From the NCBI GenBank assembly GCA_964540725.1, contig CAZINU010000001.1, positions 159,419 through 223,418 on the forward strand: 64,000 nt of DNA, read 5' to 3'. The notes beneath the pieces are model-generated. The model did no database searches. It saw nothing but the letters and a program-made list of their open reading frames with translations, and was not told the origin of the DNA. Positions 1-64,000 of this stretch are shown one piece after another; positions within the stretch are counted from its first letter, which is position 1; the number at the start of each line of letters is the position of its first letter. A program made the position numbers and the translations under genes. Source of the DNA: an uncultured Candidatus Peribacteria bacterium. Lineage in GTDB: Bacteria > Patescibacteriota > Gracilibacteria > BD1-5 > UBA2023.

Positions 1-319
1 TACGTACAACGGGTACGAAATTCCTTTGGAAGACTATCTCGTGCTTTCCCGATCCGCGTCCGGAGACTCGGTGGCCGTCCCTTTCGGGTTGGTGCGCCCC
101 GCGATTTCCCAGGCCGTCGGTCGCTCCTATCGGGAATATGCCGGAATAGCGGACGAATCGGAACGGATCTCGCGGTTTTACGAAGAATGCGTCGTACCGG
201 AATTGCCGGAATAATCCCTTCCATTTTTCGAAAAAATCCGTATCTTTCTGGCAATTTCCGCGCCGCGTGGCTCAAAAAGCCGCCGCGGCGCCCTTTATTC
301 GCCCTAACGTCCGAATTTC

Positions 320-1768
320 ATGGCTTCCAACGAAACCGTCGTCCGCTTCAATAACGTCTCGTTCAAATTCGATACGGGAAAAATCATTCTCGACGAAGTC
401 GATTTCTCTATCCGGAAAGGCTCCAAAATTACCGTCATGGGGCAAAACGGGGCGGGGAAGAGCACGATTTTCAAGATGATTACCGGCGCCATCAAGAACA
501 AATACGGAACCATCAACGTCGACAAGGACCTCTCCATCGCCACGGCCTTCCAGTCGATGCTGCCGGAAGACAAGGCGCTCGATATCCGCGCGTACTTCCG
601 AAAATATTCGAAGGACGACGCGTACAACATCGACGTCAAGATTCAGAACGTACTCGAAACGGTGAATCTGAAAGCTCCGCTCGACCGCCTCGTCGGATCG
701 TTTTCCGGCGGACAGCAGGCGCGCCTTCTTCTTGCCGCGGCGCTCATCCAAAACCCGGACATCCTCCTTTTGGACGAGCCGACCAACAACCTCGATACCG
801 CCGGCATCGAGCACTTGACCGATTTTCTCATCGCGTACCCGAAAACGGTCGTCGTCATCTCCCACGACGCCGACTTTTTGAACGCGTTTACCGACGGGGT
901 TCTGTATTTGGACGTGAATACCCACAAGGTCGAACAGTACGTCGGAAACTACCACGACGTGGTCGAACAGATTTCCGCCCGCATCGAAAAGGAAAACCGC
1001 AAGAACGCCCTTATGGCGAAGGAAGCCCAAGCCAATAAGGAACAAGCCGAAGTCTTCGCCCACAAGGGTGGAAAACTCCGACTCGTCGCGAAAAAAATGC
1101 GTGACAAGGCCGAGGAGCTCGAAGAAAACATGGTCGACGTCCGCCGGGAGGACAAGACGATCCGTTCGTTCGATATCCCCGCGCAGGAAGGTATTGGCGG
1201 GTGCATATTGCAGCTCGATTCGGTGACGGTGATGCGCGACCACGAGCCCGTCGAGACCCCCGTCGACGTCAAACTCTACCGCGGTCGGCATTTGCTTCTC
1301 TCCTGACCGAACGGCATTGGAAAAACGACGTTGCTCGAAAAGCTCGCTTCTGGCCATGCCAAGGGCGAGCACGTGGAGGACGGCGTAAAAATCGGGTACT
1401 ACCGGCAGGATTTTACGAACCTCGACTGGAACGAAACGGCGCTCGAATGCCTCTCGAAGGCCGACCCGAACATGCGCGAGCAGGATCTCCGCTCGATGGC
1501 GGCCGGCTTCCTCATTACCGGCGAAGTCATGAAGACGAAAATCGGCCACCTCTCCGACGGGCAGAAGGCCCTCGTTTCGTTCGCCCGCCTCGTCCTCGAA
1601 AAGCCGGGACTTCTCATTTTGGACGAACCGACCAACCACGTGAATTTCCGCCACATTCCGGTTATCGCCGAGGCGCTCGACCGCTACGAAGGGACCATGA
1701 TCCTCGTTTCGCACGTACAGGAATTCGTGTGGCAGATTCGCATCGACGACTATTTGGAACTCGAATAA
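320..1768 (+). CDS. ABC-F family ATPase (two tandem ABC domains, no membrane domain), one in-frame TGA
   Basis: ORFs 320-1306 and 1331-1768 share a frame. The first domain has GQNGAGKST, FSGGQQAR and LLLDEPTN. The TGA at 1304-1306 sits where the second Walker A needs Gly (LLLS-[TGA]-PNGIGKTTLL). LSDGQKAL and LILDEPTNH follow. Confidence 0.9.
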
Positions 1769-1790
1769 GGGTTCCGAACGCTTTCCGGGC

Positions 1791-2060
1791 ATGCCCTTTT
1801 TCGCCTACGTCCTCAAGTGTTCCGACGGAACCCTCTACTGCGGTTCCACGCCGGATTTGGAGCGCCGTCTTCATGAACACAACCACCTGAAAACGGGCGC
1901 GAAGTACACCCGGGGGCGCCGTCCCGTAGAACTCGCGCATTCCGAATCGTTCGAAACCCTTTCGGAGGCGAGGAAGCGGGAAAACGAAATCAAGAAAATG
2001 GACCGGGCCGCGAAAACGCGGCTTATTTCCGCCGCCAAACCGCCGGAAACGAGTTCGTAA
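1791..2060 (+). CDS. GIY-YIG nuclease superfamily small protein (UPF0213-like)
   Basis: The 89-aa ORF starts FFAYVLKCSDGTLYCGSTPDLERRLHEHN and carries ...RKRENEIKK, the typical GIY-YIG core. It ends in TAA. Confidence 0.8.
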   Translation: MPFFAYVLKCSDGTLYCGSTPDLERRLHEHNHLKTGAKYTRGRRPVELAHSESFETLSEARKRENEIKKMDRAAKTRLISAAKPPETSS

Positions 2061-3720
2061 TCCGGCTTCCGCGCACGCGTTCCAATCAGAGGAAGCGGTT
2101 TTCGAACACGACTTGGACGAGGTTCGCCCCCGAAAAAGACGGACCGGCGTTTTCGGACGGCGGCATTCCGTTCTCGGCTGGTCCTCGCCCCTCCGGGGCT
2201 GCGGAGGCCTTCGCCCGGAATCCGCCATCCGAAAACGCTTCCCCCATCGAAAGCTCGAACCCCGAAAGGTAGCGGTGGAGTTGGGCTTCGTCCGAAAGTT
2301 CGAAGGCCGGCACGTTTTCGAGCCGCCGGTTCTTTCCCAAGATCCAATTCGGCTCGAAGGTTCCGTGGTCCATGCGGCCGATCCGTTCGCCCAGACGGAG
2401 GAAGTAGAGCTTCGAAACGAGTTCGTCCAACCCCGGAACGTTCCGAACGGCGAGCACGTCGTTGCCGTACCGGAAAAACCGGTGGGCGTCGAAATCGGGG
2501 GTTCAAAGCGATCGGACGGCTTCGCGGATGCGGTCGCCTTCGCGCGGCGACCATTCGGAGAGTCCGGCGTTCGCCGCGGTCCGGAACGGTTTCGAGGGTT
2601 CCGGGCTCGGCGCGGTCTTTCGAATTTTCGCGACGAAGAATCCCCCCGCTTCTTCGACGTGGGGCCAGAACCGCTTTTGGAACGTGATTTCGAAAACGCC
2701 CGGAAGTTCTTTCGCCGCCCCTTCGAGCACCCCCTCGTTTTCGAACCGGTTCAACGTGCAGGTCGAATAGAGAAGCTCCCCGCCGGTTTTCAGGGCCGAA
2801 ATGCCCGCGACGAGGAGTTTTTGTTGGAGTCGGGCGATGGTTTTGACGTTCTTCAGATTCCAATGCTTGAGCGATTCTTCCGCCTTGAATCCGATACCCT
2901 CGCCCGAACAGGGGGCGTCGAGCAGGATTCGATCGAAGGTTTCCGGAAGCGTCCCGAAGAGCGCCGCGTTCATGTTCGTTACGCCCGTTCGGTCGAACGT
3001 TCCCATCCGTTCGACGTTTTCGATGAGCGACGAAATCCGTTCTTTCGCGAATTCGTTCGCGACGACGAACGCGTTCGGAAAGTGTTCGGAAAGTTGGGTA
3101 GTTTTGCCGCCCGGGCTCGCCGCCATATCCAGTATAAGGAACTCCGCAAAACGCGGACTTCGCGCTCAAATCTCCGCGCCTCATTCGACATACCCATACG
3201 GTACGTCTCATTCCGGTACTCGATTTTCGGGCGAATTCCATCGTTTTTCGGAGTCCTTGCCACTGTCGAAATCATCTTCGTCCGACCATGGAGCGGGAAC
3301 GTCTCGAAAACCGTCTCCCATTAAAAGGTTTTCGAGACGTTCCCCGGAACGGTCGGACGAAACGTCCTTCCAAATCCGGTATTTTCCACTTCCGCCCTCC
3401 GCCAATTTCCAAACGCTCATCGACGCCGAAAGTTCCTGCACGTAGAAATCGCCCAAGAGGTGTTCGGGCGTGCTTCAAAGCGCGACGGACGTGTCGGCTC
3501 GGTCGATTCTGAACGCGGTCGCGTTTTCGGTGGGCGAGAACGTCCATCCGGCCCTCGTTTTCTCCGCGACGAATTCGGCCGGATTGGCTCGGGAAGGGTT
3601 GATTCGGAGAGTCTTTTTGAGCGGACGGAGGAGTTGTGCGCGGAACGCTTCGAATTCCGCGGGATTCCCGGAAAAGAATTCGGATCGGAAATACTCGAGG
3701 AACGCGTTCGAAATGGCCAT
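2023..3720 (-). CDS. NOL1/NOP2/Sun-family rRNA m5C methyltransferase (RsmF-like)
   Basis: Fragments 3475-3720, 3208-3456, 2503-3126 and 2086-2457 share one frame. The joined product has FYVQELSASM, LDMAASPGGKTTQL, DAPCSGEG and YSTCTL motifs. In-frame TGAs are at 3475, 3208, 3181, 3166, 2503 and 2086. The first in-frame TAA is at 2023. Confidence 0.85.
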
Positions 3721-3779: not shown

Positions 3780-4688
3780 ATGCAGGAATTCTTCCACGAA
3801 CTCTCGACGTCCTTCCTCGCGCTCGGCACGGCGGCGGGCATGCTCGCTCTTGCGAACATCATCTTCATCGACATCGTCATGTCCGGCGACAATGCCATTC
3901 TTATCGGTATGGCGACCAGAAAATTACAGGGTCGCGACCGGAAACGGGCAATCGCGCTCGGTATCTTCCTCGCCACCGCGCTCCGCGTCGTCTTCGCGCT
4001 CATGGCGACGCTCCTCCTTTCGATCGTCGGACTGAAACTCGCCGGAGGAATCCTGTTGCTCTACGTCGTTTGGAAGTTCTACAAGGAGCTTCGGTGAGAG
4101 CATCACGAACATGCTTCGGGTGATGCCGTAACGTTTGGTGCCGCCGTTTGGACCATCGTCATGGCCGACGTCTCCATGAGCCTCGACAACGTTCTCGCGG
4201 TCGCGGGCGCGGCCCACGGAAACCTCGCCGCTCTCGCCATCGGCCTCATCGTGTCGATCATCCTCATGGCGTTCGCGTCCAACGCTATTGCCAAGATGCT
4301 CGATACGTACCCGCAAATTCAGTGGCTCGGCCTCGCGGTCATTCTCTTCGTGGCCATGGAAATGGTACTGGCCGGTTCCGCGGAGGTGGAAAACAAGGTC
4401 TTCCACGTCAATCTCGTCCCCTTCGTCGCCTTCGTCATCGGCGCGATTTTCCTGGTATTGCAGCAGAAATACGTCAAACCGCTCGCGCGCGAAAAGATGC
4501 GTGCGTGGATATCCGACCGGTTCGCGTCGATTCTCGTCGTCAATATCGTCGCCTTCCTCCTGTTCGTCCATTTCGGAGACCTGATTGCCGGATTCTTCGC
4601 TTCGCATCCGGCCATGCTGTGGTCGGCTTCCCTCGCGCTCTTCCTCGCGCTTTTGGAGGTCGTTTCGGTGTTGAAAAGTCGCGGATAG
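3780..4688 (+). CDS. TerC-family integral membrane protein
   Basis: The two halves (DIVMSGDNAILIG and DVSMSLDNVLAVAG repeats) are in one frame and are joined by the TGA at 4095-4097. The start is ATG at 3780 (MQEFFHEL) and the stop is TAG. Confidence 0.85.
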
Positions 4689-7072: not shown

Positions 7073-7468
7073 TTACTTCGCCCGCTCCAAATAATTCTGC
7101 AAAATAATCGACGCGGCCATCTCGTCGACGCGCCCGGCGTCTTTTCGCGTTACGCCCGCCTGTTCGAGGCTAAAGTAGGCCGTCTCGCTCGAAAATCGTT
7201 CGTCTTCCTCGTGAATCGGGAGACTCGGAAACGCCTTCCGGAGTTCCGCCGCGAACGAGCGCATTTGGAGGGTTTCGCGGGAAACGCTTCCGTCCATATG
7301 GTTCGGAAGTCCGAGAACGAACCCCGTAACGCCGCGTTCCGCGACGATTTTTCCAATCGTCTCGACCGCTCCTTTTTTCGGAATTCCACCGATGGGAATC
7401 GCGACGCCCGCAACCTCGGCGGCAATGCCGAGACGCTTGGTTCAGAAATCGATTCAGAGAAGGGGCAT
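7073..7468 (-). CDS. ruvX: Putative pre-16S rRNA nuclease / Holliday-junction-resolvase-like YqgF
   Basis: The N-terminus is only recovered with TGA=Gly: MPLL-[TGA]-IDF-[TGA]-TKRLGIAA gives the GIDFGTKRIG motif (TGA at 7454 and 7442). The C-terminus is GFVLGLPNHMDGS...DERFSS. Confidence 0.9.
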
Positions 7469-15940: not shown

Positions 15941-15968
15941 AAAAACCGGCGCTTAGGCGCCGGTTTTT
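15941..15968. terminator. Bidirectional rho-independent terminator
   Basis: A5-CCGGCGC-ttag-GCGCCGG-T5. The loop contains the TAA that closes the read-through form of the convergent gene. Confidence 0.6.
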
Positions 15969-21425: not shown

Positions 21426-21679
21426 TCCCGTCCTTTCATGGCTTGGATGGATTCGAAGATCGCCCGGGCCCGTTCGCGTTTTTTCGCGGAATCGGCGATT
21501 TCCGGAGAATTTCCCCGGACGAGGGGCGGTTTTTGCGGTTCGCAGGTTTTTGCGGCGACCCGGGTTCCGTCGTATCCCCGGAGAATTCCGGACGGTTCGG
21601 ACCCGAACCCGCGAATCCCCAGGATTCCGCAGCCGGAAAGGGCTATGGCGCATACGAAGGCGCAAGCGAGCGTTTTCAT
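21422..21679 (-). CDS. Small lipoprotein
   Basis: AAGGA-N7-ATG. MKTLACAFVCAIALSGC is a textbook signal plus lipobox. Its TGA stop overlaps the next start (ATGATG). Confidence 0.6.
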   Translation of the reverse strand: MKTLACAFVCAIALSGCGILGIRGFGSEPSGILRGYDGTRVAAKTCEPQKPPLVRGNSPEIADSAKKRERARAIFESIQAMKGRE

Positions 21680-50998: not shown

Positions 50999-51372
50999 CG
51001 ACAGTATGATGCAATACGCCTTATTTCCTAACCCCTCCCGCCATGAAACTGAAACCGGATCCGAACGCGTCTCCCGAGTACCCGGCCGTCCCTCCTTCCG
51101 TCCCTGCCAACGCCCAAGTTTCGCGCTTTCGCTCCGTATCGGCCCGTATGCGCGTATGCGAGGGGGTGGTCGATCCGGGGGAATGCGTCGGAAGAACGAC
51201 CGGTTGCACGCCGGAGAAATGCGAAATCTTCGCCTCCCGAGTGGCCCGCCTTCTCGTCTGTACGAGAATGGCATGGAATTTGCCCAAACGGAAGTAGGGG
51301 GTTCGGAGCGATTTGACACCCGCAAAACCTTCCATAGAATGCGCCCGCTTCGGTTCTCCGAGGTTCCCATGT

Positions 51373-51447
51373 TGGGGTATCGCCAAGCGGTAAGGCAGCG
51401 GATTTTGACTCCGCCACGCGGGGGTTCGAATCCCTCTACCCCAGCCA
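51373..51447 (+). tRNA. tRNA-Gln (anticodon UUG), CCA encoded
   Basis: TGGGGTATCGCCAAGCGGTAAGGCA matches the tRNA-Gln 5' half, including the U1-A72 pair. The anticodon stem is GCGGA/TCCGC with loop TTTTGAC. The T-arm is GGGGG-TTCGAAT-CCCTC. The acceptor 3' strand is TACCCCA, followed by G-CCA. Confidence 0.9.
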
Positions 51448-51462
51448 TAAGGGTCATAAACG

Positions 51463-51492
51463 CAAAGGGAAGCCGAAAACGGCTTCCCTTTG
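51463..51492. terminator. 13-bp hairpin between tRNA-Gln and the recombinase gene
   Basis: CAAAGGGAAGCCG-aaaa-CGGCTTCCCTTTG. It lies inside the still-open recombinase reading frame. Confidence 0.5.
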
Positions 51493-51555
51493 CCGTTATC
51501 GGAGTTCGAACTTTTTTTCCCGCCCCCCTTCTTCTTTTTGGACCTCGTTAGAACT

Positions 51556-53216
51556 TCACGATGGAAAATGCCTTGGAATAGCGGTTTCAGGCGGAAGTTC
51601 ACTATGCGCCCCCGATGAACGATGACGTAGTCGAAAATCGCTTTCGCCACTCATCGTTTTTTTCGTGGCGGGAAGTTTTTGAAATTGGTAGCGAGCTCTC
51701 TCGCGTAGGATAATGGTTCGTTTATCATCTCCGCGTTCCTTTCGGATACCGCGGGAAGGTTGGCGAGACGGTTCTTCGTCTCTTCGATTTCGACTTCCAG
51801 CTTGGATAACTGGTCGCGGATTTTTTCCTTCAGGAAAGGAAGCGTTTCCTCTACGTAGACCTTTAAGTTCCGTTGGCTTTCCCCTTCGAGCCTTCCGAGT
51901 TTTTTCCGAAGCAGGTTTCCGACGTCTTCTTGGAGTTTCCCTTCGGATTCGAGTCGAATCTCGATTGCCGTTTTGAGAAGTTTCATTTCTTCTTCGTCGA
52001 AGACCAGTTTCGATATGATTTCCTCGTTCAGAAGATTTTCCAGTGTGATGCCCGATATGAACTCGTTGTCGCAAGCCCCCTTTTTATTACAGGAGCAACG
52101 GTAGTATTGGTAGGATTTCTCCTTCTTTTTCTTGGTTTCCGCGGTAAACGGACGGAGCGATCAATTTTTCACGGCCGTTTCGTAATCCGTTCCGTCTCCC
52201 ATTTGGCACGGACAACGGACGATTCCTTTCCAAAGATACACTTCGTTTCATTCCCCCCATCCGCCTTTCGGTCAGCATTTCTTGCCTTCTCGAACGGCCC
52301 GGCATTGGTCGAACAGCCGTTTCGATATCAGGGGTACGAACGTTCCGAGTTCCCGTATCCGTTCGGTATAATCGACGACGACGCTTCATTCGCCGATTTC
52401 CATGAACGGGTATTTTTCTCGCAAGTACTCCCTTGCTTCGTTGTCGGGCATCTTATATTCGATTGCCACCCGACCCCAGTACAATTCCTGCGACAACATC
52501 TTTTCCACGTCCTTTTTCGTGAATTCCTCGATAATCTCGGGTTTTTCTCCGGAACGGTATTTCCGAAATCCGAGGCCGTTCAGTTTTTCTGCCAAGCTTT
52601 CGAAGCTGTACTCCCCCGTGGAATACAGTTCGAAACAGTTTATGACGGCCTCGTTTATCCGATGGTTCGTGTCGATTTCTACGCGCGTATATTTTCCTCT
52701 TCCATTCCGTACGTATCATCTCGGCACTTGTCAGGAAATCGTTCCTTTCTCACGAATGGCACTATCGAGGTTCATGACGCCACCGCGGGATTTCTCCATG
52801 CTTTCGAAGACCGCTTCGTTTATGGCGTCCGCAAGTGCTTTCTTTCCCGACAGCACGGAACAATCGAAGCCTTCCCGTATCGAATATACCTTAACGACGT
52901 TCCCGACCACGTACCTTTTCAGAACGTCTCATTCTTCGAAGTTTCTCGCCAAACGCGAAGCCATGTAGACGAAAACCCCGTCGATTCTTTCGCCTTCGCC
53001 GAGAACGTTCCTTTTCCGTATCTCTTCCAGCATTTCCGTAAACTCGTCCCGACATCCAGCGACGAAGCTCGATTTGTTGTCCTTGAAAACTTTCACGATT
53101 TCGAATCAGCGCTTTCGGCATTCCGTGGTCAGCGCGTCGATTTGAAAGTCGATCGAAACCGAACGGTCCTTGTGTTTCAGACTGCTCCTTCTGGCGTAAA
53201 TGAAGACTTTTTCCAT
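51556..53216 (-). CDS. Large serine recombinase (integrase), 9 in-frame TGAs, 3' end undefined
   Basis: MEKVFIYARRSS...SIDFQ (catalytic Ser) and YMASRLARN mark the resolvase domain. The recombinase domain has PLISKRLFDQCRAV. The zinc ribbon is VRCPCQMGDG...YQYYRCSC. A coiled coil follows, then the C-terminal AIFDYVIVHRGRIVNFRL. There is no in-frame TAA or TAG until 51021, so the frame crosses tRNA-Gln antisense. Confidence 0.85.
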
Positions 53217-53735
53217 TGCGGGCGTGGGTTATGGAACCGTCGGCTTATTACCGTCTCCGAATCTTGAAATCGACGATGGTTCCGCTCGAATCCGTCACCG
53301 TTTCGAGTTCGTCCGTCGGACCGAAATTCATGAAGTACCGGAAAAGGTCTTTTCGGTACTTCCACAGGTAGAGCGCGAGGAGTCCGAAGGCTTGGTTCGG
53401 AAAGTGGTCTTTCGCTTCGGATATTGTCGGTTCGGTCCAATTCCTTTTCGAAGCGTGTTTTCATAAGGAATCGAGAGCGTGCTTGGAAGCTCTCGGAAGG
53501 TTCGGCAGGTTGGCCATGAACCCCCTTACGGCTTCGGAAAGGTTTTCGGCGATGCCGATGGCTTCGGCGGTCGAAATCTCGTTTCAGCGGTACCGGTAGC
53601 CCTTTCCGTCGGGAGAAAGGAGTTTTTTCAAAATCTGCTCGATTTCGCGTTCTTTCCTCGCGTCGTACGGTTGGTTCGCCATAGGATTTCGGGTTAACCC
53701 GTAAAAGATACCGAAAAAATCCGAAACCGAAAATC

Positions 53736-54497
53736 CTACAGCCATTCTGCGACTTTTTTGAAAGAACGATTCAAGGCTTCCTTGCGTTCTTCGTCGCTCC
53801 TTCCGTCGTCTTCCACGAATCACGGAACGAACAGCACGGCGATTATCGGGAAAACGAAGAATCAGGCGGAGAAGGCTTCGAACCATTCGGGCGTGGTACC
53901 GATTCCGTCGAATATCTTTACGGGAACCATAAAAAGAGCGAAAAACGCGAACCAGTGCTTCTTCAAAAGCGTGGTGATGACGAGTATCGCGTAAAGGAAT
54001 CCGAGACCGCTCAAAAGCGATGCCATCGCCACGAAGAAGAGAACGAATCATCGGACGTTCGACGGAATCTTCGAAAGGATTGCGTCGGCGGTTTTGATCG
54101 CTTCGCAAATCCAAGCGAGAACTTCTATCCAAAGGGGGTATCGCGTTTCCTTCGGTCGCGGTTTTTCCACGGTCGGTTTCGGTTCCGACGTCCGCCGAAC
54201 CGAAAGGTTCGATTTGAGGCTTTCGTATTCTTCCATCATCGCAACGAAATCGGCCCCCTTTCATCAGCGGTCTGGGTGGTATTTCATCGCGAGTTTGCGT
54301 TTTTGCCCTTCGAGCAAGGCTTCTTCGCCGACGAAGTACCGGTCTTTGGGGAAGTGTTTCATACGCGCGGTCGGGTAATGGAAAAACCTTTCCGCGATTG
54401 TATCTGGGAAAAATGTCTTGTCCGGTGCTTTAGTGCGGAGATTGCGCGGTACCCGAGTCGATACGCGGAAAACGCCCAGACACGCTCGAACACGCAT
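53736..54497 (-). CDS. J-domain (DnaJ-like) membrane protein
   Basis: KRKLAMKYHPDR-[TGA][TGA]-KGADFVAMMEEYESL restores HPD-x-GG (54261-54266). Hydrophobic helices follow. There are 5 in-frame TGAs in total. The stop is TAG at 53736. Confidence 0.75.
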
Positions 54498-54515
54498 CGG
54501 CTTTTTTCGTCATTT

Positions 54516-55211
54516 TTACGACCTTTCCGATTCCAAAACCCCTCGAACGGTTTCCAAGGTGAGGAGTCCGAAGTTTTCGGGAAAGTACGTTTTCCGATTC
54601 TGGTCTTCGGGGTCTATTCGGAACAGTCCGAGGTTTTCCGTTTTGGAATACAGGATTCGCGATTGCCACTGCTTCATTCATAGGGCGAAAACCTTTCGGA
54701 CGGAGAAGTCTTTCCTTTCCAAGAGTTCCAGCATTCAGGCGAAAACCCTTTCCGATTCGTCCGCATACCCTTTTCCGACGGTTTCGGAACTCCCGGTTTC
54801 GAGCGAAAGGCAAGGAGCCGAGAGCGTTCGGTATCAGGGTTTCACGGCTCCGTCGGACGACTTGCCCGTAAAAAGGAGCACGCACGCGGGAATCTTCGTT
54901 CCGTTCACGCTCGCGGACGTGAAGGAAACGTTCGGATACCCGTCTCACGGAAGGAGGCGGTTCGCCATTTTCCTGAAATGTTCGAGAACGGTTTTCAATA
55001 TCGGCAGTGCCAAGAGCGCGGAAGAAACGGTTTTCGGATCCACTTTCAGTTCGAAGACGACGAAAGATTGCGAACGTACTATCCGTCCGACCATCCGGTC
55101 GGGAGCGAGCGTTTCGTGGAAAGAGAAGAACGCGGGAATTTTCGAAGATTCCACGGCCCTTTCCAACGCGTCGCGGAGCGTCGTCCTATCTTCCATCGCC
55201 GATTTCGACAA
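54516..55211 (-). CDS. Hypothetical island protein (4 in-frame TGAs)
   Basis: ORF 54945-55211 continues in frame through TGAs at 54945, 54834, 54735 and 54678 to TAA at 54516. The composition looks protein-like, but I recognised no motif. Confidence 0.5.
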
Positions 55212-55671
55212 GCCTCGCCATCTCCGCGCGTATCTGTTCCAATTCCTCCGTTTTCTTTTCTTCGCTCATCCCGAGCTCTTCGAGCTTCATTCGGAGCTTG
55301 TCGGATTTCAAATCGGAATCGAAAGGGTTGGAAGAATCCGAAGAGAACGAATCGAGTTCGGCTTTGCGTATTTCGTTTTCGAGTTCGCGTTGGCGGATGG
55401 CGATGGTTTTCAACGCGTGGACGGTAGCCCGTTCCTTTTCGGCGAGTTTCCTGTATTCGGTTTCGGCCTTGGAAAGCGGTTTGCCTTGTCGTGATTCCGA
55501 CCGTTCCGAAGTTTTGGAAGAAGACGGCGTGTGCCAGAATGCGAAGAACGCGACGAGCGCGAGAACCGCTATGAGTCCGAAAGAGTCGCCGTCCGTCGGA
55601 CTTTCCTTCTTGGGTATCGGCTTCGGAGATTCCGTCGCCGTGGCGTACGCCGTTCGGTAAAGTGCGTCCAT
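55186..55671 (-). CDS. Hypothetical TM plus coiled-coil island protein
   Basis: It starts MDALYRT, has a TM helix (FGLIAVLALVAFFAFW) and then an E/K/L-rich coiled coil. The stop is TAG. Confidence 0.5.
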   Translation of the reverse strand: MDALYRTAYATATESPKPIPKKESPTDGDSFGLIAVLALVAFFAFWHTPSSSKTSERSESRQGKPLSKAETEYRKLAEKERATVHALKTIAIRQRELENEIRKAELDSFSSDSSNPFDSDLKSDKLRMKLEELGMSEEKKTEELEQIRAEMARLVEIGDGR

Positions 55672-55740
55672 AGTAAGGGAAAAATGAAGGTGTAATCGGC
55701 GTTTTCTGCGCCTCGTTATCTCCAATGGATGCCACGGACG

Positions 55741-55835
55741 TTTTCTCAAATCTTTTTCCGACTTTTTTCGCGTTTCGACACGCGACCGCACGCCGAAGCG
55801 GAAAAGTCGGATTTTTGAAAAAAGATTTGAGAAAA
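55741..55835. repeat. Long imperfect inverted repeat inside the island
   Basis: TTTTCTCAAATCTTTTT..CCGACTTTT (55741-55766) matches AAAAGTCGG..AAAAAGATTTGAGAAAA (55802-55835). The two arms flank a GC-rich 35-nt spacer. Confidence 0.5.
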
Positions 55836-56357
55836 CGGATCGCTTTTCGAATTGGATGGAAGTTCGGCTCCGTCCGACGGCTTACCAATTCATTTTTTTC
55901 GACATGAAGAAAACTACCGAAGAAACCACGTGAGGATTCTATTTCCACTCCGACGATTTCGAACCGTCGAGAAAGCTCGAAGACGGCGATTCCTTCGCGC
56001 ACTACCGTTTTCATTTCCTTTGCCGGTACGCGCTCGACGTGCGGGGAATCGAGGATTTTTCCTTCACGGTTTGAGAATTCGTGGAAAACGCCAAGGCGAA
56101 GAAGATTTGAAATCCCGAAAAACTCTCGGCGTCGCTTCTCGACGGTTGCGTACCCGAAAACCCGTACCTTTCCTTCTCTATGGAAAACGGGGTTCCGAAG
56201 ATTTCCGTTTCACAGCCGAACTGAAGGGGAAGCATAGGCGAAAACCTCGTCGTGCTCGATTCGGCGACTTGCTCCGCGGTTTCGAAAGACGCCGAAGCGT
56301 TCAAGTTCCTTTGTTCGGTCGTGAAGAACTGCCGAGGTTAGCGAACCGATTCGAAAA

Positions 56358-56396
56358 GAAAAATCCCGAACCGTAGTCAACGGTTCGGGATTTTTT
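56358..56396. terminator. Bidirectional terminator inside the island
   Basis: ATCCCGAACCG-tagtcaa-CGGTTCGGGAT has A-runs and T-runs on both sides. Confidence 0.6.
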
Positions 56397-56743
56397 GAAA
56401 AAGTCGGTTTTTTTCTTGAGAAAACGCGGAACCCATCCATTTCGCAAGACAACGGCTGACCGAGTACAAACGGTCGTCCCAGAGCGGTGAGTCCCCGAGG
56501 ATATAAAACCGCGCAAATGGGTCGCGATGAGCCGAAACGCGAGGCATTCCTTGGCGAACGCAGTCCGATATACGGAACGGGTTCGAACTTCTCCGTTTTG
56601 GCGAAAGCCAAACGAGTGATAAGTCCCTAACGGGATGAGTGGTAGCGACGAGCGTTTTTTCGTGCTCGCTCTTCTTTTTGTCGGTTTTGAAAGAGCGGGC
56701 ACGCCCCACGAATCGAATCCTCAATCGGAACAGGCTACAAAAA

Positions 56744-57982
56744 CTACCGCTCTCTATCTTTCAATAAGACTATGAAATCTTCAAGATTCATGAGCCAGCC
56801 CTTCTGCCTGTCCGTATAGGTTTCATGAAGTTTCTTCGGGAGGATGAGTTGAAGATTTTCACTTCGCATCTCGTCCGTTTGAGATTCGCTGATTGCTGTT
56901 TGAAGAGTGATGAGATGTTTTTTCTCGATTCGTTTCGCTTCGGCTAAAACCTGTCTCCATCTGTCTTTACAGGTTGTCTTCGCGCCCAGCATTGTCAGTT
57001 TACTTATTGGAAAAGCGGGATTTCTGTATTCGTCGATTCATGGAAAGAGGAAATCCGGTTTGGAGCGGTTTTCCGTTATTTCAGTTCTTGAATGCCTGAT
57101 GGATCTGCTTTTGAAAAGATGTTCTATATGGTTTTCCAAACTTGCTCAAGCGCGACTTTTCCTTCTGTTTTGAACATGGAGCGAGAAACCTATGAATCCT
57201 TCAACGTCGGCAATGCCCCGACCATCCATGAATCATTGGGAAAGCCTGTCAGCCAGATGATAACGCTCCAAGGTTCTAAAAAGTACCTCCTCACGTTCCA
57301 TCCACGCCATAAGGACGGAATCTGAATCATCCAAGGCATCGACGCCTTTCAAAGTTTGCCGAGCGTATTCGGAAAAGATTTTCGTACTTGGAAACGAGTC
57401 TTTTCAAAAACGAGAAAGCATATCTTCCAAGAATGTCTCGTCTTCCGTCTCCACCTGAAATCCTATCGCTTCCAAAATTGTTTTTGCTGCGAACTCGATT
57501 CGAACCTGTCAGGTTTCAATTTCGCTCCTGACTGAAAATCAAGGATGGGCTGACGTCGTTAGGCCAAAGAGCCATTCTAATTGGCTGGCGATAGTCGAAT
57601 CGTTTTCGGCAATAATGATCAACAGCCGTCAGTTCGGTAATTTGCCGATGATTAGTAAGTCGCCTTCATTGGCGCATTCAGAGACGCTGGTTGTCGGAAA
57701 ATAGAGCCTATATTCAGAACGTCAGGTTTTCTCGAAACTTTTAGCCCTTGGGTCATACCAAGTCACCGTTCATTCATCCGAGACGGCTTCGTCGTCAAAA
57801 TCGTTGAGGTACAGAAAATGCGCTTCGAAATACTTCTTTTCTTGCTCCTCTCACAACATCGTTTTAAGTCCTTTTACCCCATTGAACTCGTGCTGATTCG
57901 AATTCGCGGGATTCGCTTCGACTGCGCTCAATCGCTTTGCAGCGATGCTCTCAAAATATTTGGAAAGATACCCGTTTTCCAT
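56744..57982 (-). CDS. Type II restriction endonuclease, EcoRII-like (10 in-frame TGAs)
   Basis: Hand-joined 412-aa product. The N-terminus is MENGYLSKYFESIAAKRLSAVEANPANSNQHEFNG. The C-terminus is PDFLFP...GAKTTCKDRWRQVLAEAKRIEKKHLITLQTAISESQTDEM. The family call is from memory of EcoRII-type sequences. The ATG directly follows the methylase TAA. Confidence 0.75.
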
Positions 57983-59263
57983 TTATGCCGTAGTTATCAA
58001 AGAAGGAGCGTCCTCTTTCATTTTAGCCAACAAGGGCGAATAAAGCGATAGCTGTTGATTTTTTATACCCATGATATGGGGTTTCATTGCTCGCGCTGCT
58101 TCGCTCATAACTGGAACGACGACGGAGTTTCCGAATTGCCTATAAGCTTGGGTGTCGGAGACCGGGATTTTGAAAGAATCGGGAAATCACATCAGACGCG
58201 CGCATTCACGGGGTGTAAGTCGCCTTGGATTCTTATTTTTACCCCTTGAGACGAGTATTTCCGAACCATCTTTGTAATATCGGGCGGAGAGAGTTCGACT
58301 TGTGTCATTCGGCGTCACCAATCCGAATCAGAACCCATTTCACTTCGCCTTGTGCTTCTCGGCGTATCATTGTAAGTATGCCCACAGCTTGTCTGATAGG
58401 GTGAACTTCGATTGAACTTTTCATTTGGAACCGTGAATGTACCTATTTCCATCATGTTCAATTGGCAATTCCGTTCCGTCCTCTGGATGAAGGATGAAGT
58501 TCATCTTCGGTGCCGATAATGGAATGTTGAAGGAGTCCCATGAAAAATCAGTCTTCTCCCTGAATCCAACTATCAGTATTCGTTCCCGATGTTGTGGAAC
58601 CCAAGATTTTCCATCTACGACCTTCCAATGTACGTCATAACCCAATTCATCTCGTAATGTTTGTAAGATTACGCGGAACGTATTGCCTTTATCATGGGAA
58701 ACAAGATTTTTTACGTTTTCCAGCAAGAAAGCCGAAGGGCGTTTTTCTGCGATAATTCTTGCGACATCAAAAAAAAGAGTTCATTGGGTGGTACATTCGA
58801 AACCATGAGGACGACCAAGGGAGTTCTTTTTACTTACCCCAGCGATAGAGAATGGCTGACAAGGGAAACCTGCCAGCAATACATCATGATTCGGTATATC
58901 TTTCGCTTCAACTTTGGTAATATCTCACTCCACCTTGTGATCCTCCCCGAAGTTCTCGACGTAAGTTTTTACTGACCAAGGACTCCATTCGCTCGTAAAC
59001 ACGCACTTTCCGCCTGCTTGTTCGAAACCAAGGCGAATGCCACCGATTCAGGCGAAGAGGTCTATGAACGTGAAATCTTGTCCGCCATTTGTTCAGTTCT
59101 TGGAGGAAAGGGCTTCTTTAAGGGCTGGGATTATCAAGGATGGGGTGGGGATTTCACCTTTTTCCCAACGTCGAATGGTACGAGAGTTCCTTCATAAAAT
59201 GTTCGCGATTTCTCATTGAGAAAAGCGTAATCGGGCCTTTGCGAGCATTTCTTGCGGACTCAT
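57983..59263 (-). CDS. DNA cytosine-5 methyltransferase with N-terminal HTH (11 in-frame TGAs)
   Basis: An Xre-like HTH (SQ-[G]-EIANIL-[G][13 protein letters not shown]) precedes the methylase motifs. These are motif I FIDLFA-[G]-IGG, motif [10 protein letters not shown], motif VI ENV, motif [24 protein letters not shown]-[G]-FPD and QFGNSV. Confidence 0.9.
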
Positions 59264-59308
59264 ATTTTCGTTTTACTGGGTAAGATTTCGGACAAAATAT
59301 CCGGATTC

Positions 59309-59345
59309 TGACACATGTCAAAAGGCATTTTATGTATTTTTACAT
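59309..59345. promoter_or_regulatory. Palindromes in the AT-rich region upstream of the methylase (candidate operators)
   Basis: TGACA-ca-TGTCA lies at 59309-59320 and ATGTA-tttt-TACAT at 59332-59345. Confidence 0.35.
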
Positions 59346-59501
59346 AAAACCATATGTAATTTATAAGCGAAACACAATTTATTTGTGGATTTACTCGTCT
59401 CAAAGAAGAAAAGCCTCCGTTAATCTCGCTAAATCGTCAGGCTTACAGCCTTTCATAAAGAGTTCTAACACTGCCTCCTCGGGTCAGCCATTCTCGAATC
59501 A

Positions 59502-59706
59502 AAAATCCCCCGAAAGGGGGATTTGTTGTTCGAGAAGGCGGGGTAGAGGGATTCGAAGCCGCCGCCTTCCGTCTCGTCCGCCGGAGGCGGCGAGGCGGTA
59601 CGGAGCCACTATTCGTGGCTCCGTAGGCAAGGGGTTCCGAGGAACGAGCGTCCGGCGCCGCATCGCGGCCCGGCGCGACATTCCGAGGAAAGAATCCCTC
59701 TACCCC
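59502..59706 (-). ncRNA. Structured element B (candidate ncRNA) with terminator; paralogue of element A
   Basis: On the minus strand the 5' arm GGGGTAGAGGGATTC (59706-59692) pairs with the 3' arm GAATCCCTCTACCCC inside 59540-59557. Internal hairpins are present, for example ACGGAGCCAC-gaata-GTGGCTCCGT. The shared 20-nt core is at 59627-59646. An AAATCCCCC-tttc-GGGGGATTTTT terminator lies at 59503-59524. Confidence 0.35.
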
Positions 59707-61388: not shown

Positions 61389-61401
61389 TTCGGGAATTCT
61401 G

Positions 61402-61435: not shown

Positions 61436-61499
61436 AGTCTCGTCTGCCCATTCCCGTGGGCGGACGTTTCGGGATATTTCGCTTCAAGAAGGGTGCGAC

Positions 61500-62339
61500 C
61501 TATTTTCCCGACTGCCACAGGAACGCCTCGAACGTGTTTTCGAGAAGCATCGCGACGGTCATCGGGCCGACTCCGCCGGGAACGGGGGTAATGTCGGCGA
61601 TTCGGACGATTCCGTCGAAATCGGCATCGCCTACGAGTTTTCCATCCGAGGTCCGGTTAATGCCGACGTCGATGACGGTCGCCCCCGGTCGGACCATGTC
61701 GGGCTTCAGAAGCCCGGGGCTTCCCGCCGCCATGATCACGACGTCGGCGTTTTTCGTGTGTTCCGACAGATCGCGCGTTTTCGAGTGGCAGACAGTGACC
61801 GTCGCTCCGGCATTCGCCAGAAGGAGCGCGAGAGGCTTGCCGACGATGTTTCCGTTTCCCACGACCGTTACGTCCTTTCATTCTAGAAGGATTCCGTAAT
61901 GGGAAAGGAGCCGGAGGATTCCCTTCGGGGTACAGGGAACGAAACCGCTTTGACGGTTAAGGAAAATTCCGGACACGCTCGCCTGAGTGAATCCGTCGAC
62001 GTCCTTTTCGGGCGAAATCGCGTCGACGACGGCATTTCGGTCCACGTGGGCGGGAAGGGGGAGTTGGACGATGATCGCATGGGTCCCCGAGTCGTTGTTC
62101 CGATCCCGAACGACATCGAGCACGTTTTTCGTCGACGCGTTTTCGGAAAGTTCGACGAGTTCGAATTCCATGCCGACTTCCTCGCAAGCCCGACGTTTTT
62201 GTCGCACGTACGCCAGGCTTGCCGGATTCTCGCCCACGAGGACTACCGAGAGTTTCGGGCGTCCGTCGCAACGCGAAACGCGCTCCGAAAGCGAATTTCG
62301 AATTTCGGTCGCGAGGGTACGTCCTTCCAATATGGCCAT
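61500..62339 (-). CDS. folD: Bifunctional methylenetetrahydrofolate dehydrogenase/cyclohydrolase FolD
   Basis: Two fragments share a frame. The TGA at 61878 restores ILLE-[G][17 protein letters not shown]. The product also has VQLPLP and [14 protein letters not shown]. Confidence 0.9.
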
Positions 62340-62482
62340 AGGTTCGGTCGGGGTTCGGAAACGGAAAAACGGATGCGTGAGTATATCGAATCGGCCCGAT
62401 CGCGCAATTCTCGGGTCGACGTCGAGGCTTCGCGGGCAGCCGAAACATCGGAAAAGAATTGCTCCGGGATCGCGAAAAAAGC

Positions 62483-63196
62483 TTATGGAACCGTCGGATT
62501 CCGAACGTTCAGGCTTCCCGTTCGGAGATCGAGGAAAACGTCCTGGCTCCGGTATTTTTCACGAATGCCCAGCTCTTGCTTGTATCCAAGATTGAGTTTG
62601 AGCCGTACGACGTTCGCGAATTGCGGATCGATACAGCCCGGAATGGTCGGACACGACATCGTTCGGGCCCACATTTCGGTTCCGCGGACGAAGATGCCGA
62701 CGGTCGAACCGGTATATCCGATCGGATACCGCTCAAAGTTCGTTCCCGTCTCGTCCGACAATCGGAAAACCAACGCGTCGTTTTTGTCGTACCCCGAAAT
62801 CGACGCGATTCGGAAACGGGAATTCGGTTCTCCGAACATGGGCGCGGGAACGCTCGTTTCGTCGACGGTTCCGCAAACGTTCGATATCCGCCCCTGATCG
62901 TCGAAGGAAACGGAAGAGCCGGTAATGGCAAGGGGCGATACGGCGATAACGAAATCGGGACATCCTCCGGTAATGGTCGTACGTCCCGTAACGGCATTCG
63001 ATTTCGCGAAACGGATAATTGATTCGAATTTTTGCACGAACCCCCGAAGTTTCTCGATTTCGGTCTGCCGCTCGAAGTCGAAATTCCCCACCGTGACCGC
63101 CAGGATGCCGATAATCGCGATTACGACCATGAGTTCCGTGAGGGTGAAGGCGCGGCTTGAAACCATCCGGATGCGGTCGGAAAGGATTTTTTTCAT
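62483..63196 (-). CDS. Type IV pilin-like protein (prepilin N-terminal methylation motif)
   Basis: MKKILSDRIRMVSSRAFTLTELMVVIAIIGILAV carries the class III signal (G/A-FTLxE) plus a hydrophobic helix. Confidence 0.8.
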   Translation of the reverse strand: MKKILSDRIRMVSSRAFTLTELMVVIAIIGILAVTVGNFDFERQTEIEKLRGFVQKFESIIRFAKSNAVTGRTTITGGCPDFVIAVSPLAITGSSVSFDDQGRISNVCGTVDETSVPAPMFGEPNSRFRIASISGYDKNDALVFRLSDETGTNFERYPIGYTGSTVGIFVRGTEMWARTMSCPTIPGCIDPQFANVVRLKLNLGYKQELGIREKYRSQDVFLDLRTGSLNVRNPTVP

Positions 63197-63306
63197 GCGG
63201 AACGTTTGCAAATATGCCGATGGTATGGTATATTCGAGGGCAAGTCTTACGAAGTATACCGCTTCGGGGCCCCTCCGCAATATTATTTTCTTTCATTCCT
63301 TTTCGT

Positions 63307-64000
63307 ATGAAGCTTGCAAAAACGCTCGCAGCCTTCGCGATTGCCACCGCGTCCGTAGGATCGGCCCTCGCAGCAGAAGAAGCCGCTCCGGCCGCCGTCA
63401 CCGGCGCCACCGCCGCCACCACGATGGAAGCTCCGGCCGCCGACGCCGCCTCGGGAACCTCGGTTTCCCTGAACGTCGAAGGCGCCCCCGCCGTCGTCTC
63501 GACGACCGCCAACTCGGTTACCCTCCAGTGGAACAAGGTCGAAGCCGCCGTTTCTTACATCGTGAAGTATTCCGAGAAATCCGTCGCCACCTCCGCCGAA
63601 CCGAATCCGGTCTACGATAACGAAACCGCTCCGGTTACCGAAACCGGCGCTACCGTCGAAGGTCTCACCGAAGGAAAGACGTACTACTTCGCGGTCGTCG
63701 CCCTCGATAAGGACGGAAACGAATCCGATTCCCTCTCCGAGGAACTCGCCGTTATCCTCTCGGCCCCGGTTACCGCCTCCGGAACCTCCGCAGGTTTCGC
63801 TCTCGTTGCGGTAACCGTAAAGAACACCCGTTCCATGACGGTCGAATTCTCGGCCCCCCTCGGAACCGATCCGATCGAAGTGAAGCTCCAGAAGACCGCC
63901 AATAGCGCCACCATTCCGGTAGAATCCATCGTCGCCGATCCGATGAATCCGACGACCGCCACCGTCACCCTCGCCGCCGACCTCGAAGGCGATTCCACCT
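63307..64000 (+). CDS. Secreted protein with fibronectin type III-like domain(s), 3' partial at window end
   Basis: It is absent from the ORF track because no stop falls within the window. The signal is MKLAKTLAAFAIATASVGSALA. The FN3 pattern is SVTLQWNKVEAAVSYIVKYS...GLTEGKTYYFAVVALDKDGNES. Confidence 0.7.
   Translation, partial: MKLAKTLAAFAIATASVGSALAAEEAAPAAVTGATAATTMEAPAADAASGTSVSLNVEGAPAVVSTTANSVTLQWNKVEAAVSYIVKYSEKSVATSAEPNPVYDNETAPVTETGATVEGLTEGKTYYFAVVALDKDGNESDSLSEELAVILSAPVTASGTSAGFALVAVTVKNTRSMTVEFSAPLGTDPIEVKLQKTANSATIPVESIVADPMNPTTATVTLAADLEGDST

Follow-up and report, generated by a model that had tools for sequence, protein, structure and literature searches.

Genes and in-frame TGA codons in the window

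The window, by which we mean the whole analyzed stretch of 64 000 nt, is chromosomal DNA with a GC content of 56.7%. An initial annotation had proposed that TGA encodes glycine throughout this DNA and that the standard code fragments about 20 genes. All 14 coordinates cited there carry TGA on the plus strand or TCA, i.e. a TGA on the minus strand, and we counted 20 fragmented genes, 13 in the core and 7 in a mobile island. In-frame TGA codons are present in 13 of 39 core genes (21 TGA versus 1050 GGN codons) and in 7 of the 8 genes of the low-GC island (45 versus 138), and the island holds 45 of the 73 TGAs of the window. For a check of continuity, open reading frames bounded by TAA or TAG were translated with TGA as X and compared with Pfam. 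The domains of the ABC-F ATPase, RsmB/F, TerC, RuvX, L9, RsmE, the FtsX/MacB permease, the ABC exporter, RuvB, MiaA, the serine recombinase, the EcoRII-like enzyme, Dcm and FolD were continuous across X. Since these single domains are unbroken, the fragments flanking the TGAs lie in one frame, as had been stated before.

The claim that the TGAs fall on invariant glycines stood for the MiaA P-loop, the ABC-F Walker A motif, FolD and most Dcm sites, where alignments with solved structures give Gly. In the ABC-F ATPase (320..1768, plus strand) TGA 1304 takes the place of the first Gly in the second Walker A motif and is spanned by Pfam ABC_tran; ABC-F proteins in the PDB have G at this column, within GeNGvGKsT or GPNGvGKST. 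TGA 46527 of MiaA (45648..46559, minus strand) supplies the Gly in the P-loop GxxxxGKT, which reads GPTAvGKT or GPTAsGKT in PDB MiaA proteins, and TGA 61878 of FolD (61500..62339, minus strand) corresponds to the Gly in ..i.GKD.. of PDB FolD. The N-terminal table-11 fragment of FolD is found as a separate ‘protein’ entry in a public collection.

The same wording was too strong for RuvB, L9, RsmE, position 7454 of RuvX and a J-like motif of the island. RsmE 15420, L9 7899 and RuvX 7454 are variable columns at which the closest relatives carry GGN. In RsmE (14955..15665, plus strand) TGA 15420 is spanned by Pfam Methyltrans_RNA and is GGC in the related loci L001 and L002, while Leu or Pro is found in more distant ones. 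TGA 7899 of ribosomal protein L9 (7482..7946, minus strand) is spanned by Pfam L9_N, and its relatives show 9 Gly, 6 Asn, 3 His, 1 Ser and 3 TGA. RuvX/YqgF (7073..7468, minus strand) contains TGAs 7454 and 7442, at the motif where Pfam RuvX begins; relatives have 15 GGN and 8 TGA at 7442, and 9 Gly, 12 Ala and 2 Ser at 7454. TGA 43500 of RuvB (42717..43745, plus strand) also lies in a variable column, which is Asp in Pseudomonas aeruginosa RuvB, and AAA_lid_4 and RuvB_C are contiguous across it.

The RsmB/F-type rRNA methyltransferase recognized by Pfam (2023..3720, minus strand) has six TGAs (3475, 3208, 3181, 3166, 2503 and 2086); relatives carry GGN in 7 of 10 cases at 3475 and in 7 of 9 at 2503, and GGG at 2086 in L001 and L002. 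In the membrane protein TerC (3780..4688, plus strand) TGA 4095 is located in a variable loop, where relatives have TGA, His or Ala, and the TerC domain is unbroken. A secreted protein without assigned function (15953..17434, minus strand) contains TGA 16130, with 4 GGN and 1 TGA in relatives and a positive coding score on both sides. The FtsX domain of the MacB/FtsX permease (32842..34005, plus strand) reaches the C-terminus across TGA 33943, which is GGG in L028 and TGA in L010. Among TGAs 38770, 39076 and 40210 of the ABC exporter (38572..40530, plus strand), the last is spanned by Pfam ABC_tran and corresponds to the first Gly in the LSGGQ signature, with GGC in L010. In a hypothetical protein (41116..41550, minus strand) TGA 41134 lies five codons upstream of TAA and may be either sense or stop.

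A TGA-rich mobile island at tRNA-Gln

The integrated island of 8.3 kb (51443..59706) has a lower GC content of 0.47–0.51, and TGA makes up 25% of its Gly codons. It is inserted at tRNA-Gln(UUG) (51373..51447, plus strand; ARAGORN and Rfam). An exact direct repeat of 15 nt, GAATCCCTCTACCCC, is found at 51428–51442, inside the tRNA 3′ end, and at 59692–59706. The only other RNA gene of the window is tRNA-Glu(CUC) (41824..41898, minus strand; ARAGORN and Rfam). The cargo consists of a serine recombinase, a J-like membrane protein, hypothetical genes, an EcoRII-like endonuclease and a Dcm methyltransferase. The large serine recombinase (51021..53216, minus strand; Pfam Resolvase, Recombinase and Zn_ribbon_recom) has nine TGAs, and its reading frame extends through tRNA-Gln, which is encoded on the other strand. 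The J-like membrane protein with an HPD motif (53736..54362, minus strand) has five, including the tandem TGAs at 54261–54266; it has no Pfam match at E ≤ 0.001, and its DnaJ matches are weak (E 0.03–0.2) and show Asn/Asn opposite the tandem. Pfam EcoRII-C covers the EcoRII-like restriction endonuclease (56744..57982, minus strand) at full length across its ten TGAs, opposite which EcoRII structures have one Gly and one Ser. The Dcm-type C5 cytosine methyltransferase (57983..59263, minus strand) contains eleven TGAs, including 59048 in motif I and 58187. Compared with Dcm (3lx6) and M.HhaI, Gly is found at 6–7 of 8 aligned TGAs and Arg at one; one TGA aligns with Glu in Dcm and Gly in HhaI. 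The island donor was probably a lower-GC organism that also used code 25.

Residues aligned with TGA and stop codon usage

The residues of relatives opposite the TGAs were tabulated, as the initial annotation had suggested. In the 111 columns opposite a window TGA we observed Gly in 52%, a TGA of the relative in 15%, Ala in 10% and Trp in none. Columns of GGN codons gave Gly in 60–68% and TGA in 8–10%, and TGG columns gave Trp in 63%. Of the 661 TGAs of relatives in the reciprocal count, 439 lie opposite a window Gly and one opposite Trp. In-frame UGA is thus a sense codon with a residue profile equal to that of GGN codons, although distant homologues have another residue in several of these columns (Asp in RuvB, Arg in Dcm, Ser in EcoRII, His in TerC). 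Reading UGA as Trp (table 4), known from Mycoplasmatales and several insect endosymbionts, would likewise make UGA a sense codon and mend the broken reading frames equally well. However, the aligned residue is Gly and not Trp, and the P-loop, Walker A, LSGGQ and Dcm motif positions demand Gly, so that table 4 has virtually no chance of being correct.

The 38 complete core genes end with 22 TAA, 16 TAG and no TGA, and in relatives, among them the GC-rich L001, L002 and L010, the matching C-termini are likewise followed by TAA or TAG. With the standard code, a genome of 57% GC would be expected to use TGA for about half of its stops or more. A standard code combined with pseudogenes, sequencing or assembly errors, selenocysteine or a chimeric contig would agree with the public gene calls for the contig, which are table-11 fragments. 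This explanation is refuted: besides the absence of terminal TGA from core genes, the 66 TGAs of the 20 fragmented genes concentrate on Gly columns, independent assemblies carry TGA or GGN at these positions, and the synteny is common to several independent metagenome-assembled genomes (MAGs). As for selenocysteine, the TGA columns are not Cys, and no SECIS-type RNA element was found in the window by Rfam, which reported only the two tRNAs.

Taken together, three independent lines, namely the residue profiles against relatives, the alignments with solved structures and the exclusive use of TAA and TAG at core gene ends here and in GC-rich relatives, support the assignment of UGA to glycine (translation table 25), and the lineage is one already known for this code. 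The decoding tRNA would be a tRNA-Gly(UCA), with release factor 2 absent from the cell, like in described members of the lineage; no tRNA-Gly(UCA) was detected in the window (ARAGORN, Rfam) or in related loci totalling 0.76 Mb.

Relationship to known code-25 lineages

Table 25 was described for Gracilibacteria/BD1-5 and Absconditabacteria/SR1 (Campbell et al. 2013; Rinke et al. 2013), with JAEDAM01 as the GTDB class (gTranslate preprint). A search with NusA returned 38 closest relatives with 53–89% identity and GC contents of 22–56%, all of them Gracilibacteria-type MAGs. The nearest, including CG2_30_37_12, are labelled ‘Candidatus Gracilibacteria’ at NCBI, in agreement with the earlier view of UGA as Gly as a Gracilibacteria trait, and all 38 have TGA at Gly columns. 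We infer that the lineage is a BD1-5-type group of GTDB class JAEDAM01. It shares with table 25 organisms UGA at Gly columns, core stops restricted to UAA and UAG, and a TGA-rich resident mobile element, as seen for prophages of such hosts (Liu et al., PMC10746230). It differs in its GC content, in the low share of UGA among core Gly codons (about 2%) and in one operon with UGA at gene ends.

The initial annotation had stressed that the genome is GC-rich, yet still uses UGA. This is true, but the paradox is milder than it appears, because the 2% of TGA among core Gly codons agrees with the gradual decrease seen in the relatives as GC rises, most TGAs of the window sit in the lower-GC island, and code-25 clades of up to 53% GC have been published. 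The GC content of the relatives ranges from 22% to 59%, and their TGA share of Gly codons falls from 0.6–0.9 at low GC to 0–0.05 at GC 0.53–0.56. The published clades, with table 25 defined for the Gracilibacteria lineage, span GC 0.21–0.53, and the window lies above this range. The window very probably represents chromosomal DNA of a GC-rich member of the UGA-glycine lineage, with one operon as the exception.

An operon with TGA at gene ends

The exception is a defence-type beta-CASP/E2/E1 operon of seven genes at 18.4–27.9 kb, four of which end at in-frame TGAs that the initial annotation had not listed (18494, 19725, 21422 and 21692). The word ‘throughout’ is therefore not strictly correct, since this operon has TGA at four conserved gene ends and none inside its genes. 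The Beta-CASP/MBL-fold protein (24543..27923, minus strand; Pfam Beta-Casp and RMMBL) at the operon head has no TGA among its 84 Gly codons; it has 1126 aa here versus about 568 aa in relatives, where it ends with TGA or TAA at ...IYL. A 168-aa protein (21692..22198, minus strand) ends in ...IRRNHL followed by TGA 21692–21694, and the start codon and signal peptide of a lipoprotein follow five codons later. At the same aligned end its homologues have TAG (L081, L097, L098), TGA (L083, L086, L099) or, in low-GC relatives, TAA. The 85-aa lipoprotein (21422..21679, minus strand) ends with TGA 21422–21424, which overlaps the next start as ATGA; this overlap is likewise called in L081, L086 and L098, and the in-frame extension scores -87 bits. 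The CBASS-type E2-like protein (19725..20189, minus strand; PADLOC E2) ends in ...WILPEA and TGA 19725–19727, and the homologous end is TGA in all seven GC-rich genomes and TAA in low-GC relatives. Finally, the ThiF/E1-like adenylyltransferase (18494..19312, minus strand) ends in ...CVCAAK and TGA 18494–18496. The next TAA or TAG lies 69 codons beyond, the coding score drops past the TGA, and 37 of 37 homologues end 2–8 residues past the CxC motif.

With 6A-MBL or type II CBASS Cap2-like modules the operon shares PADLOC E2 and E1-E2 matches, the latter to the ThiF-like protein together with NCBIfam 6A-MBL system cap2_3, and an MBL-fold gene at its head. It differs in that E1 and E2 are separate small proteins and in a score of 56 versus a curated cut-off of 320 bits, and no cyclase or JAB protein was recognized in the operon. 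Judged from these matches, membership in either system is not established.

Across the seven GC-rich genomes, the 46 operon gene ends comprise 30 TGA, 11 TAA and 5 TAG, whereas TGA is absent from the ends of about 76 core or flanking genes; these genomes are related, so that the counts are not independent, and the ends of the relatives were taken from table-11 gene calls. The terminal TGAs lie at position-conserved C-termini and interchange with TAA and TAG. Inside the operon genes no TGA occurs among 888 Gly codons, with about 17 expected at the core rate. Plain code 25 does not account for the UGA at these gene ends.

A plausible reading, to which we would give somewhat less than an even chance, is that code 25 applies everywhere and that the operon-end TGAs are read as Gly, the resulting C-terminal tails or fusions being tolerated. 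Such TGAs could have arisen from TAA under GC pressure in weakly selected genes, or they could be relics of a standard-code donor; defence cassettes commonly swap between genomes. The pattern is indeed limited to accessory, defence-type genes, a small neighbouring gene and a radical SAM gene in relatives are also TGA-ended, and in the window gene p82 the ancestral end was replaced by a sense codon and five residues. However, TGA is retained at 30 of the 46 ends, no end has drifted far past the conserved C-terminus, and the predicted tails, often longer than 100–300 codons, would cross the following genes in another frame. With regard to a donor, the synteny ClpB-CARDB-betaCASP...ThiF-UPF0489-Gmk is kept on the chromosome in the GC-rich clade, which argues for vertical descent, and no close homologue was found outside Gracilibacteria-type genomes (next best match 32% identical) or on viral contigs. 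Code-11-compatible phages of Gracilibacteria and Absconditabacteria (Liu et al., mBio 2023, PMC10746230) provide a precedent, as they share with the operon the lack of in-frame TGA within a code-25 host. In contrast to these phages, the operon is chromosomal and syntenic, and its genes often end with a lone TGA that has no TAA or TAG nearby instead of several clustered stops.

Alternatively, and in our view rather less probably, UGA may have a dual outcome in the GC-rich clade, being read as Gly inside most reading frames and as stop at the 3′ ends of genes in the beta-CASP/E2/E1 operon. Termination could be constitutive and context-dependent or conditional; for example, a phage-supplied release factor or the loss of tRNA-Gly(UCA) would yield defence proteins of correct length only in infected cells. 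The conserved C-termini with their mixture of stops fit such a dual outcome. Close relatives differ at the same codon only by TAA versus TGA (ThiF in L081 versus L098; p18x and p8x in L097 versus L081), while replacement by a sense codon, expected if TGA were merely sense before a neutral tail, is absent. Reading through would add tails of 12 to >300 codons, the spacer after E2 contains a Shine-Dalgarno sequence and indels with lengths that are not multiples of 3, and the ATGA overlap of the lipoprotein is present in at least four genomes. In low-GC relatives the E2/E1 genes are nearly TGA-free at equal GC3, with neighbours of up to 80% TGA (in L085, 1 of 44 Gly codons versus 148 of 186 in neighbouring genes). 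Against termination at UGA, release factor genes were not found in the related loci examined, core genes never end with TGA, although this would be expected of a competent stop under GC pressure, and the island genes with 9–11 sense TGAs each need efficient Gly decoding. Moreover, the base after the terminal TGA is often C (12 of 30), which is a weak context for release factor 2 in E. coli. We know of no bacterial counterpart of context-dependent stops. If UGA is read in two ways here, the operon would share with Condylostoma and Blastocrithidia a codon that is sense inside genes and a terminator at their ends; these are eukaryotes, however, in which closeness to poly(A) and the 3′ end is thought to be decisive.

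TGA codons inside genes

The initial annotation had read TGA as glycine throughout (translation table 25) and had listed 14 in-frame TGA coordinates; all 14 were found to be TGA on the forward strand, or TCA and hence TGA on the minus strand. The window has a GC content of 56.7%, with a lower-GC stretch at about 52–60 kb. We translated ORFs bounded by TAA or TAG, writing X for TGA, and compared the translations with Pfam. Single Pfam domains were continuous over X in ABC-F, RsmB/F, TerC, RuvX, L9, RsmE, the FtsX/MacB permease, an ABC exporter, RuvB, MiaA and FolD, as well as in the large serine recombinase, the EcoRII-like endonuclease and the Dcm methyltransferase. Because these domains span X, the sequences flanking each TGA belong to one gene in one frame, which is what had been claimed from the sequence alone. 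For the gene models we relied on Pfam matches and relatives, since in DNA this rich in GC a codon-usage gene finder chose antisense shadow ORFs, such as that of RuvB. We set no store by the raw comparison of ORF lengths between tables, which spurious long ORFs had inflated.

In the resulting curated gene table, 13 of the 39 core genes (those apart from a lower-GC mobile island) contain in-frame TGA, with 21 TGA and 1050 GGN codons, so that TGA makes up 2.0% of the glycine codons. The island holds 45 TGA and 138 GGN codons in 8 genes, 7 of them with in-frame TGA (25% of glycine codons). Altogether 20 genes are truly split under table 11, in agreement with the earlier estimate of about 20. The public protein collection holds the genes of this contig as table-11 fragments: FolD is on record as a 153-aa N-terminal piece ending at a TGA, and full-length FolD and MiaA are absent. 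Table 25 is needed to annotate the contig, and the public table-11 calls misrepresent these 20 genes.

The meaning of UGA

At the level of sequence comparison, three independent lines, namely relatives, solved structures and stop usage, agree that UGA means glycine. For the first line we compared the window with relatives codon by codon. In the 111 columns with a TGA in the window, the relatives have Gly in 52%, their own TGA in 15% and Ala in 10%. Trp, which the initial annotation had named as the residue that would speak against its reading, occurred in none of the 111 columns. This profile matches that of the four GGN codons (Gly 60–68%, relatives' TGA 8–10%), while in the same comparison TGG columns contain Trp in 63% and CGG and CGA behave as Arg. 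Counted reciprocally, the relatives' TGA codons stand opposite Gly in the window in 439 of 661 cases and opposite Trp in one. On these two Trp counts (0/111 and 1/661) we rejected table 4, in which UGA would be Trp.

In alignments to solved structures, the TGA of MiaA is the P-loop Gly, that of FolD is a conserved Gly and that of ABC-F, in the second domain, is the first Gly of Walker A. For Dcm, Gly was found at 6–7 of 8 aligned TGA sites, motif I and the CARLMGFP motif among them, and of two sites in the EcoRII-like endonuclease aligned to EcoRII structures, one fell on Gly and one on Ser. The view that the TGAs occupy invariant glycines therefore stands for the MiaA P-loop, the ABC-F Walker A motif, FolD and most of Dcm, but not for RuvB, the J-like protein, RsmE, L9 and RuvX at 7454. 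At the RuvB site (43500) Pseudomonas aeruginosa RuvB has Asp. In the J-like protein, weak DnaJ matches have Asn/Asn opposite the tandem TGA, and no J domain was called by Pfam. The sites in RsmE (15420), L9 (7899) and RuvX (7454) are variable columns, each with GGN in the two closest relatives.

A standard-code genome at about 57% GC would end about half or more of its genes with TGA. Here, all 38 complete core genes end with TAA (22) or TAG (16), all 8 island genes end without TGA, and the homologous core C-termini in relatives, including three GC-rich loci (L001, L002 and L010), end with TAA or TAG. Together, residue profiles, solved structures and these core stops bear out the assignment of TGA to glycine, and because of the same evidence we rejected pseudogenes and a chimeric contig. 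Selenocysteine was rejected as well, as the TGA columns are Gly-like and not Cys-like; Rfam finds only two tRNAs in the window. Code-25 organisms are marked by a tRNA-Gly(UCA) and by the loss of release factor 2 (prfB), the two genomic hallmarks to which the initial annotation had pointed. No tRNA-Gly(UCA) was found in the window, nor in related loci amounting to 0.76 Mb. Likewise, no class-I release factor GGQ motif was found in the window or any fetched locus, at a coverage of any one genome that is too small to show absence.

Lineage and GC content

A NusA search with one genome per species gave about 38 close relatives with 53–89% identity and a GC content of 22–56%, all of them metagenome-assembled genomes labelled by NCBI as Candidatus Gracilibacteria or Candidatus Peribacteria. 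These 38 nearest relatives themselves carry TGA at Gly columns, and by its nearest NusA matches the contig is placed in the Gracilibacteria(BD1-5)/Absconditabacteria clade. GTDB assigns table 25 to the class JAEDAM01 (orders BD1-5 and Absconditabacterales) and warns that some genomes labelled Gracilibacteria by NCBI are table 11 (gTranslate preprint).

Among the relatives, the TGA share at conserved Gly columns falls as GC rises, from 0.6–0.9 of glycine codons at a GC content up to 0.36, to a few percent at 0.37–0.48 and to 0–0.05 at 0.53–0.56. The 2% share in the window core fits this trend. Low genomic GC, a common but not defining accompaniment of code 25, is not found in the window (56.7%, against a published GC range of 0.21–0.53 for code-25 clades). 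Public relatives of 53–59% GC exist; the window therefore lies at the high end of the known range and not outside the known kind. We conclude that the genome uses table 25 and lies at the GC-rich end of a lineage already known, and that the initial interpretation was right. UGA = Gly survives here at 57% GC in about 2% of the core glycine codons, yet none of the core genes has returned to a UGA stop.

A mobile island in tRNA-Gln

An exact 15-nt direct repeat (GAATCCCTCTACCCC) occurs at 51428–51442, inside the 3' end of tRNA-Gln(UUG), and again at 59692–59706. It brackets 8.3 kb of lower-GC DNA (51443–59706) integrated in the tRNA 3' end. Besides the large serine recombinase and an EcoRII/Dcm restriction-modification pair, this DNA contains five small genes. 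The frame of the serine recombinase runs without a stop of any kind until 51021 and crosses tRNA-Gln on the opposite strand (51021–51650). With 9–11 sense TGAs per gene, the island could not function in a standard-code host. Its TGA share is at the level of much lower-GC relatives, and most likely it was acquired from another code-25 organism of lower GC. A TGA-rich element carrying restriction-modification from such a donor would fit gene exchange confined to organisms that share the code. Apart from the island, the window contains a direct repeat of 257 nt (36581–36837 and 40841–41097; 99% identity), through which the 3' end of the MacB-type ABC ATPase gene recurs downstream of the ABC exporter gene.

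An operon with TGA at its gene ends

The reading of UGA as glycine is already known; the unexpected result, and the one part that would surprise a specialist, is an operon with UGA at its gene ends. Seven genes on the minus strand, running from 27.9 to 18.4 kb, encode in order a beta-CASP/MBL-fold protein, a 168-aa protein (p168), an 85-aa lipoprotein, a protein of about 400 aa, an E2-like protein, an 82-aa protein (p82) and a ThiF/E1-like protein (Pfam, PADLOC and NCBIfam). The operon is of a defence type and a candidate for a 6A-MBL / CBASS Cap2-type E1–E2 module. Pfam matched ThiF and Beta-Casp, PADLOC matched an E2 model (CBASS-type E2-like, E = 3e-12) and an E1–E2 model (E = 2e-25), and the NCBIfam 6A-MBL cap2_3 model scored 56 bits, far below its cut-off of 320. 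The beta-CASP protein has 1126 aa here and about 568 aa in relatives. Here it runs on for 532 coiled-coil-like residues (24543–26141) beyond ...ERLIF, the point at which the relatives' proteins end with TGA or TAA and the window has CGC. Within the operon, at 22303–24408 on the minus strand, three consecutive table-11 ORFs (145, 223 and 324 aa) share one frame, with TGA codons at 23971 and 23287 between them. The relatives' operons lack these ORFs, and a homologue search of the protein collection found none, not even the ORFs themselves.

The claim that TGA encodes glycine throughout holds for core and island genes; four TGAs, all on the minus strand, which stand at operon gene ends and not inside genes, are an apparent exception. 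In p168, ...IRRNHL is followed by TGA (21692), and a start codon with a lipoprotein signal peptide comes five codons on. The lipoprotein ends with ...MKGRE and a TGA (21422) overlapping the next ATG as ATGA, the E2-like protein with ...WILPEA (TGA at 19725) and the ThiF/E1-like protein with ...CVCAAK (TGA at 18494). The next in-frame TAA or TAG lies 69–136 codons further, and the coding score collapses past these TGAs where the extension is not another gene. All 37 ThiF-like homologues end 2–8 residues past the CxC motif, and low-GC relatives have a TAA or TAG stop at the matching alignment positions of E2, p168 and ThiF. Past the E2 TGA, the spacer contains a Shine-Dalgarno sequence and varies by indels of lengths not divisible by three; it evolves as non-coding DNA.

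We extended the comparison to seven GC-rich genomes, the window and six more of 56–59% GC (L081, L083, L086, L097, L098 and L099). In five of the six added genomes the operon lies in the same neighbourhood (ClpB-CARDB-betaCASP...ThiF-UPF0489-Gmk), L083 being the one that differs. The 46 operon genes end with TGA in 30 cases, TAA in 11 and TAG in 5; none of about 76 core or flanking genes ends with TGA (Fisher P ~3e-17, which is generous as the genomes are related). Internal TGA is absent among 888 operon glycine codons, for which the core rate would predict about 17 (P ~2e-8, again generous for related genomes). Between close relatives, TAA versus TGA at the same codon can be the sole difference, as for ThiF in L081 and L098 and for two further operon proteins (p18x and p8x) in L097 and L081. 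In a low-GC relative (L085), TGA makes up 148 of 186 glycine codons in the neighbouring genes versus 1 of 44 in E2, ThiF and adjacent operon genes, at the same GC3. The operon has no internal UGA in the GC-rich genomes and next to none in low-GC relatives, whose neighbouring genes use TGA for most glycine codons; UGA, UAA and UAG interchange freely at position-conserved ends in its GC-rich members.

One candidate explanation is that the operon TGAs are read as glycine and that the resulting tails are tolerated under GC pressure. The proteins would then be extended out of frame by as much as several hundred residues, and a neutral TGA should often mutate to other sense codons. However, only TGA, TAA and TAG were observed at these positions, the window's p82, longer by five residues, being the one partial exception; this restriction speaks for TGA being retained as a terminator-like signal. 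The core genes, which never end with TGA, speak against UGA as a fully competent stop, as does the island, which needs efficient glycine decoding. Further candidates are dual decoding of UGA at the operon ends dependent on context and dual decoding dependent on a condition. The base after TGA is more often C at terminal than at sense TGAs, a difference confounded by coding versus intergenic composition.

Recent import of the operon from a standard-code donor fits poorly with the conserved synteny. It also fits poorly with the homologue search, which found no close homologue outside Gracilibacteria-type genomes, and with the scan of viral contigs, in which the ThiF-like protein had no match. 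With the ThiF-like protein alone as query, a metagenome scan gave no match, and when repeated with an alignment it gave only 10 loci, distant and low-GC.

Tentatively, and with considerable doubt, we consider that the operon may in effect be written in the standard code inside UGA = Gly genomes, with UGA ending translation there by context or under a particular condition. No bacterium is known in which one codon is both sense and stop, and if UGA truly terminates at these ends, this would be the first such case. As a speculation, phage infection might restore UGA termination or remove tRNA-Gly(UCA), and the operon genes would be correctly terminated only then; the operon would in that case sense a shift in the genetic code. 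Code-11-compatible phages of these hosts have been described (Liu et al., mBio 2023, PMC10746230).

A small conserved gene beside the operon in relatives (L081 9750–10052, L097 8273–8662, L099 8414–8707 and L086 8460–8747) ends with ...EHAY. In L081 and L097 this is followed by TGA, whereas the L086 homologue ends with TAG, and from this interchange TGA at gene ends may reach other accessory genes.
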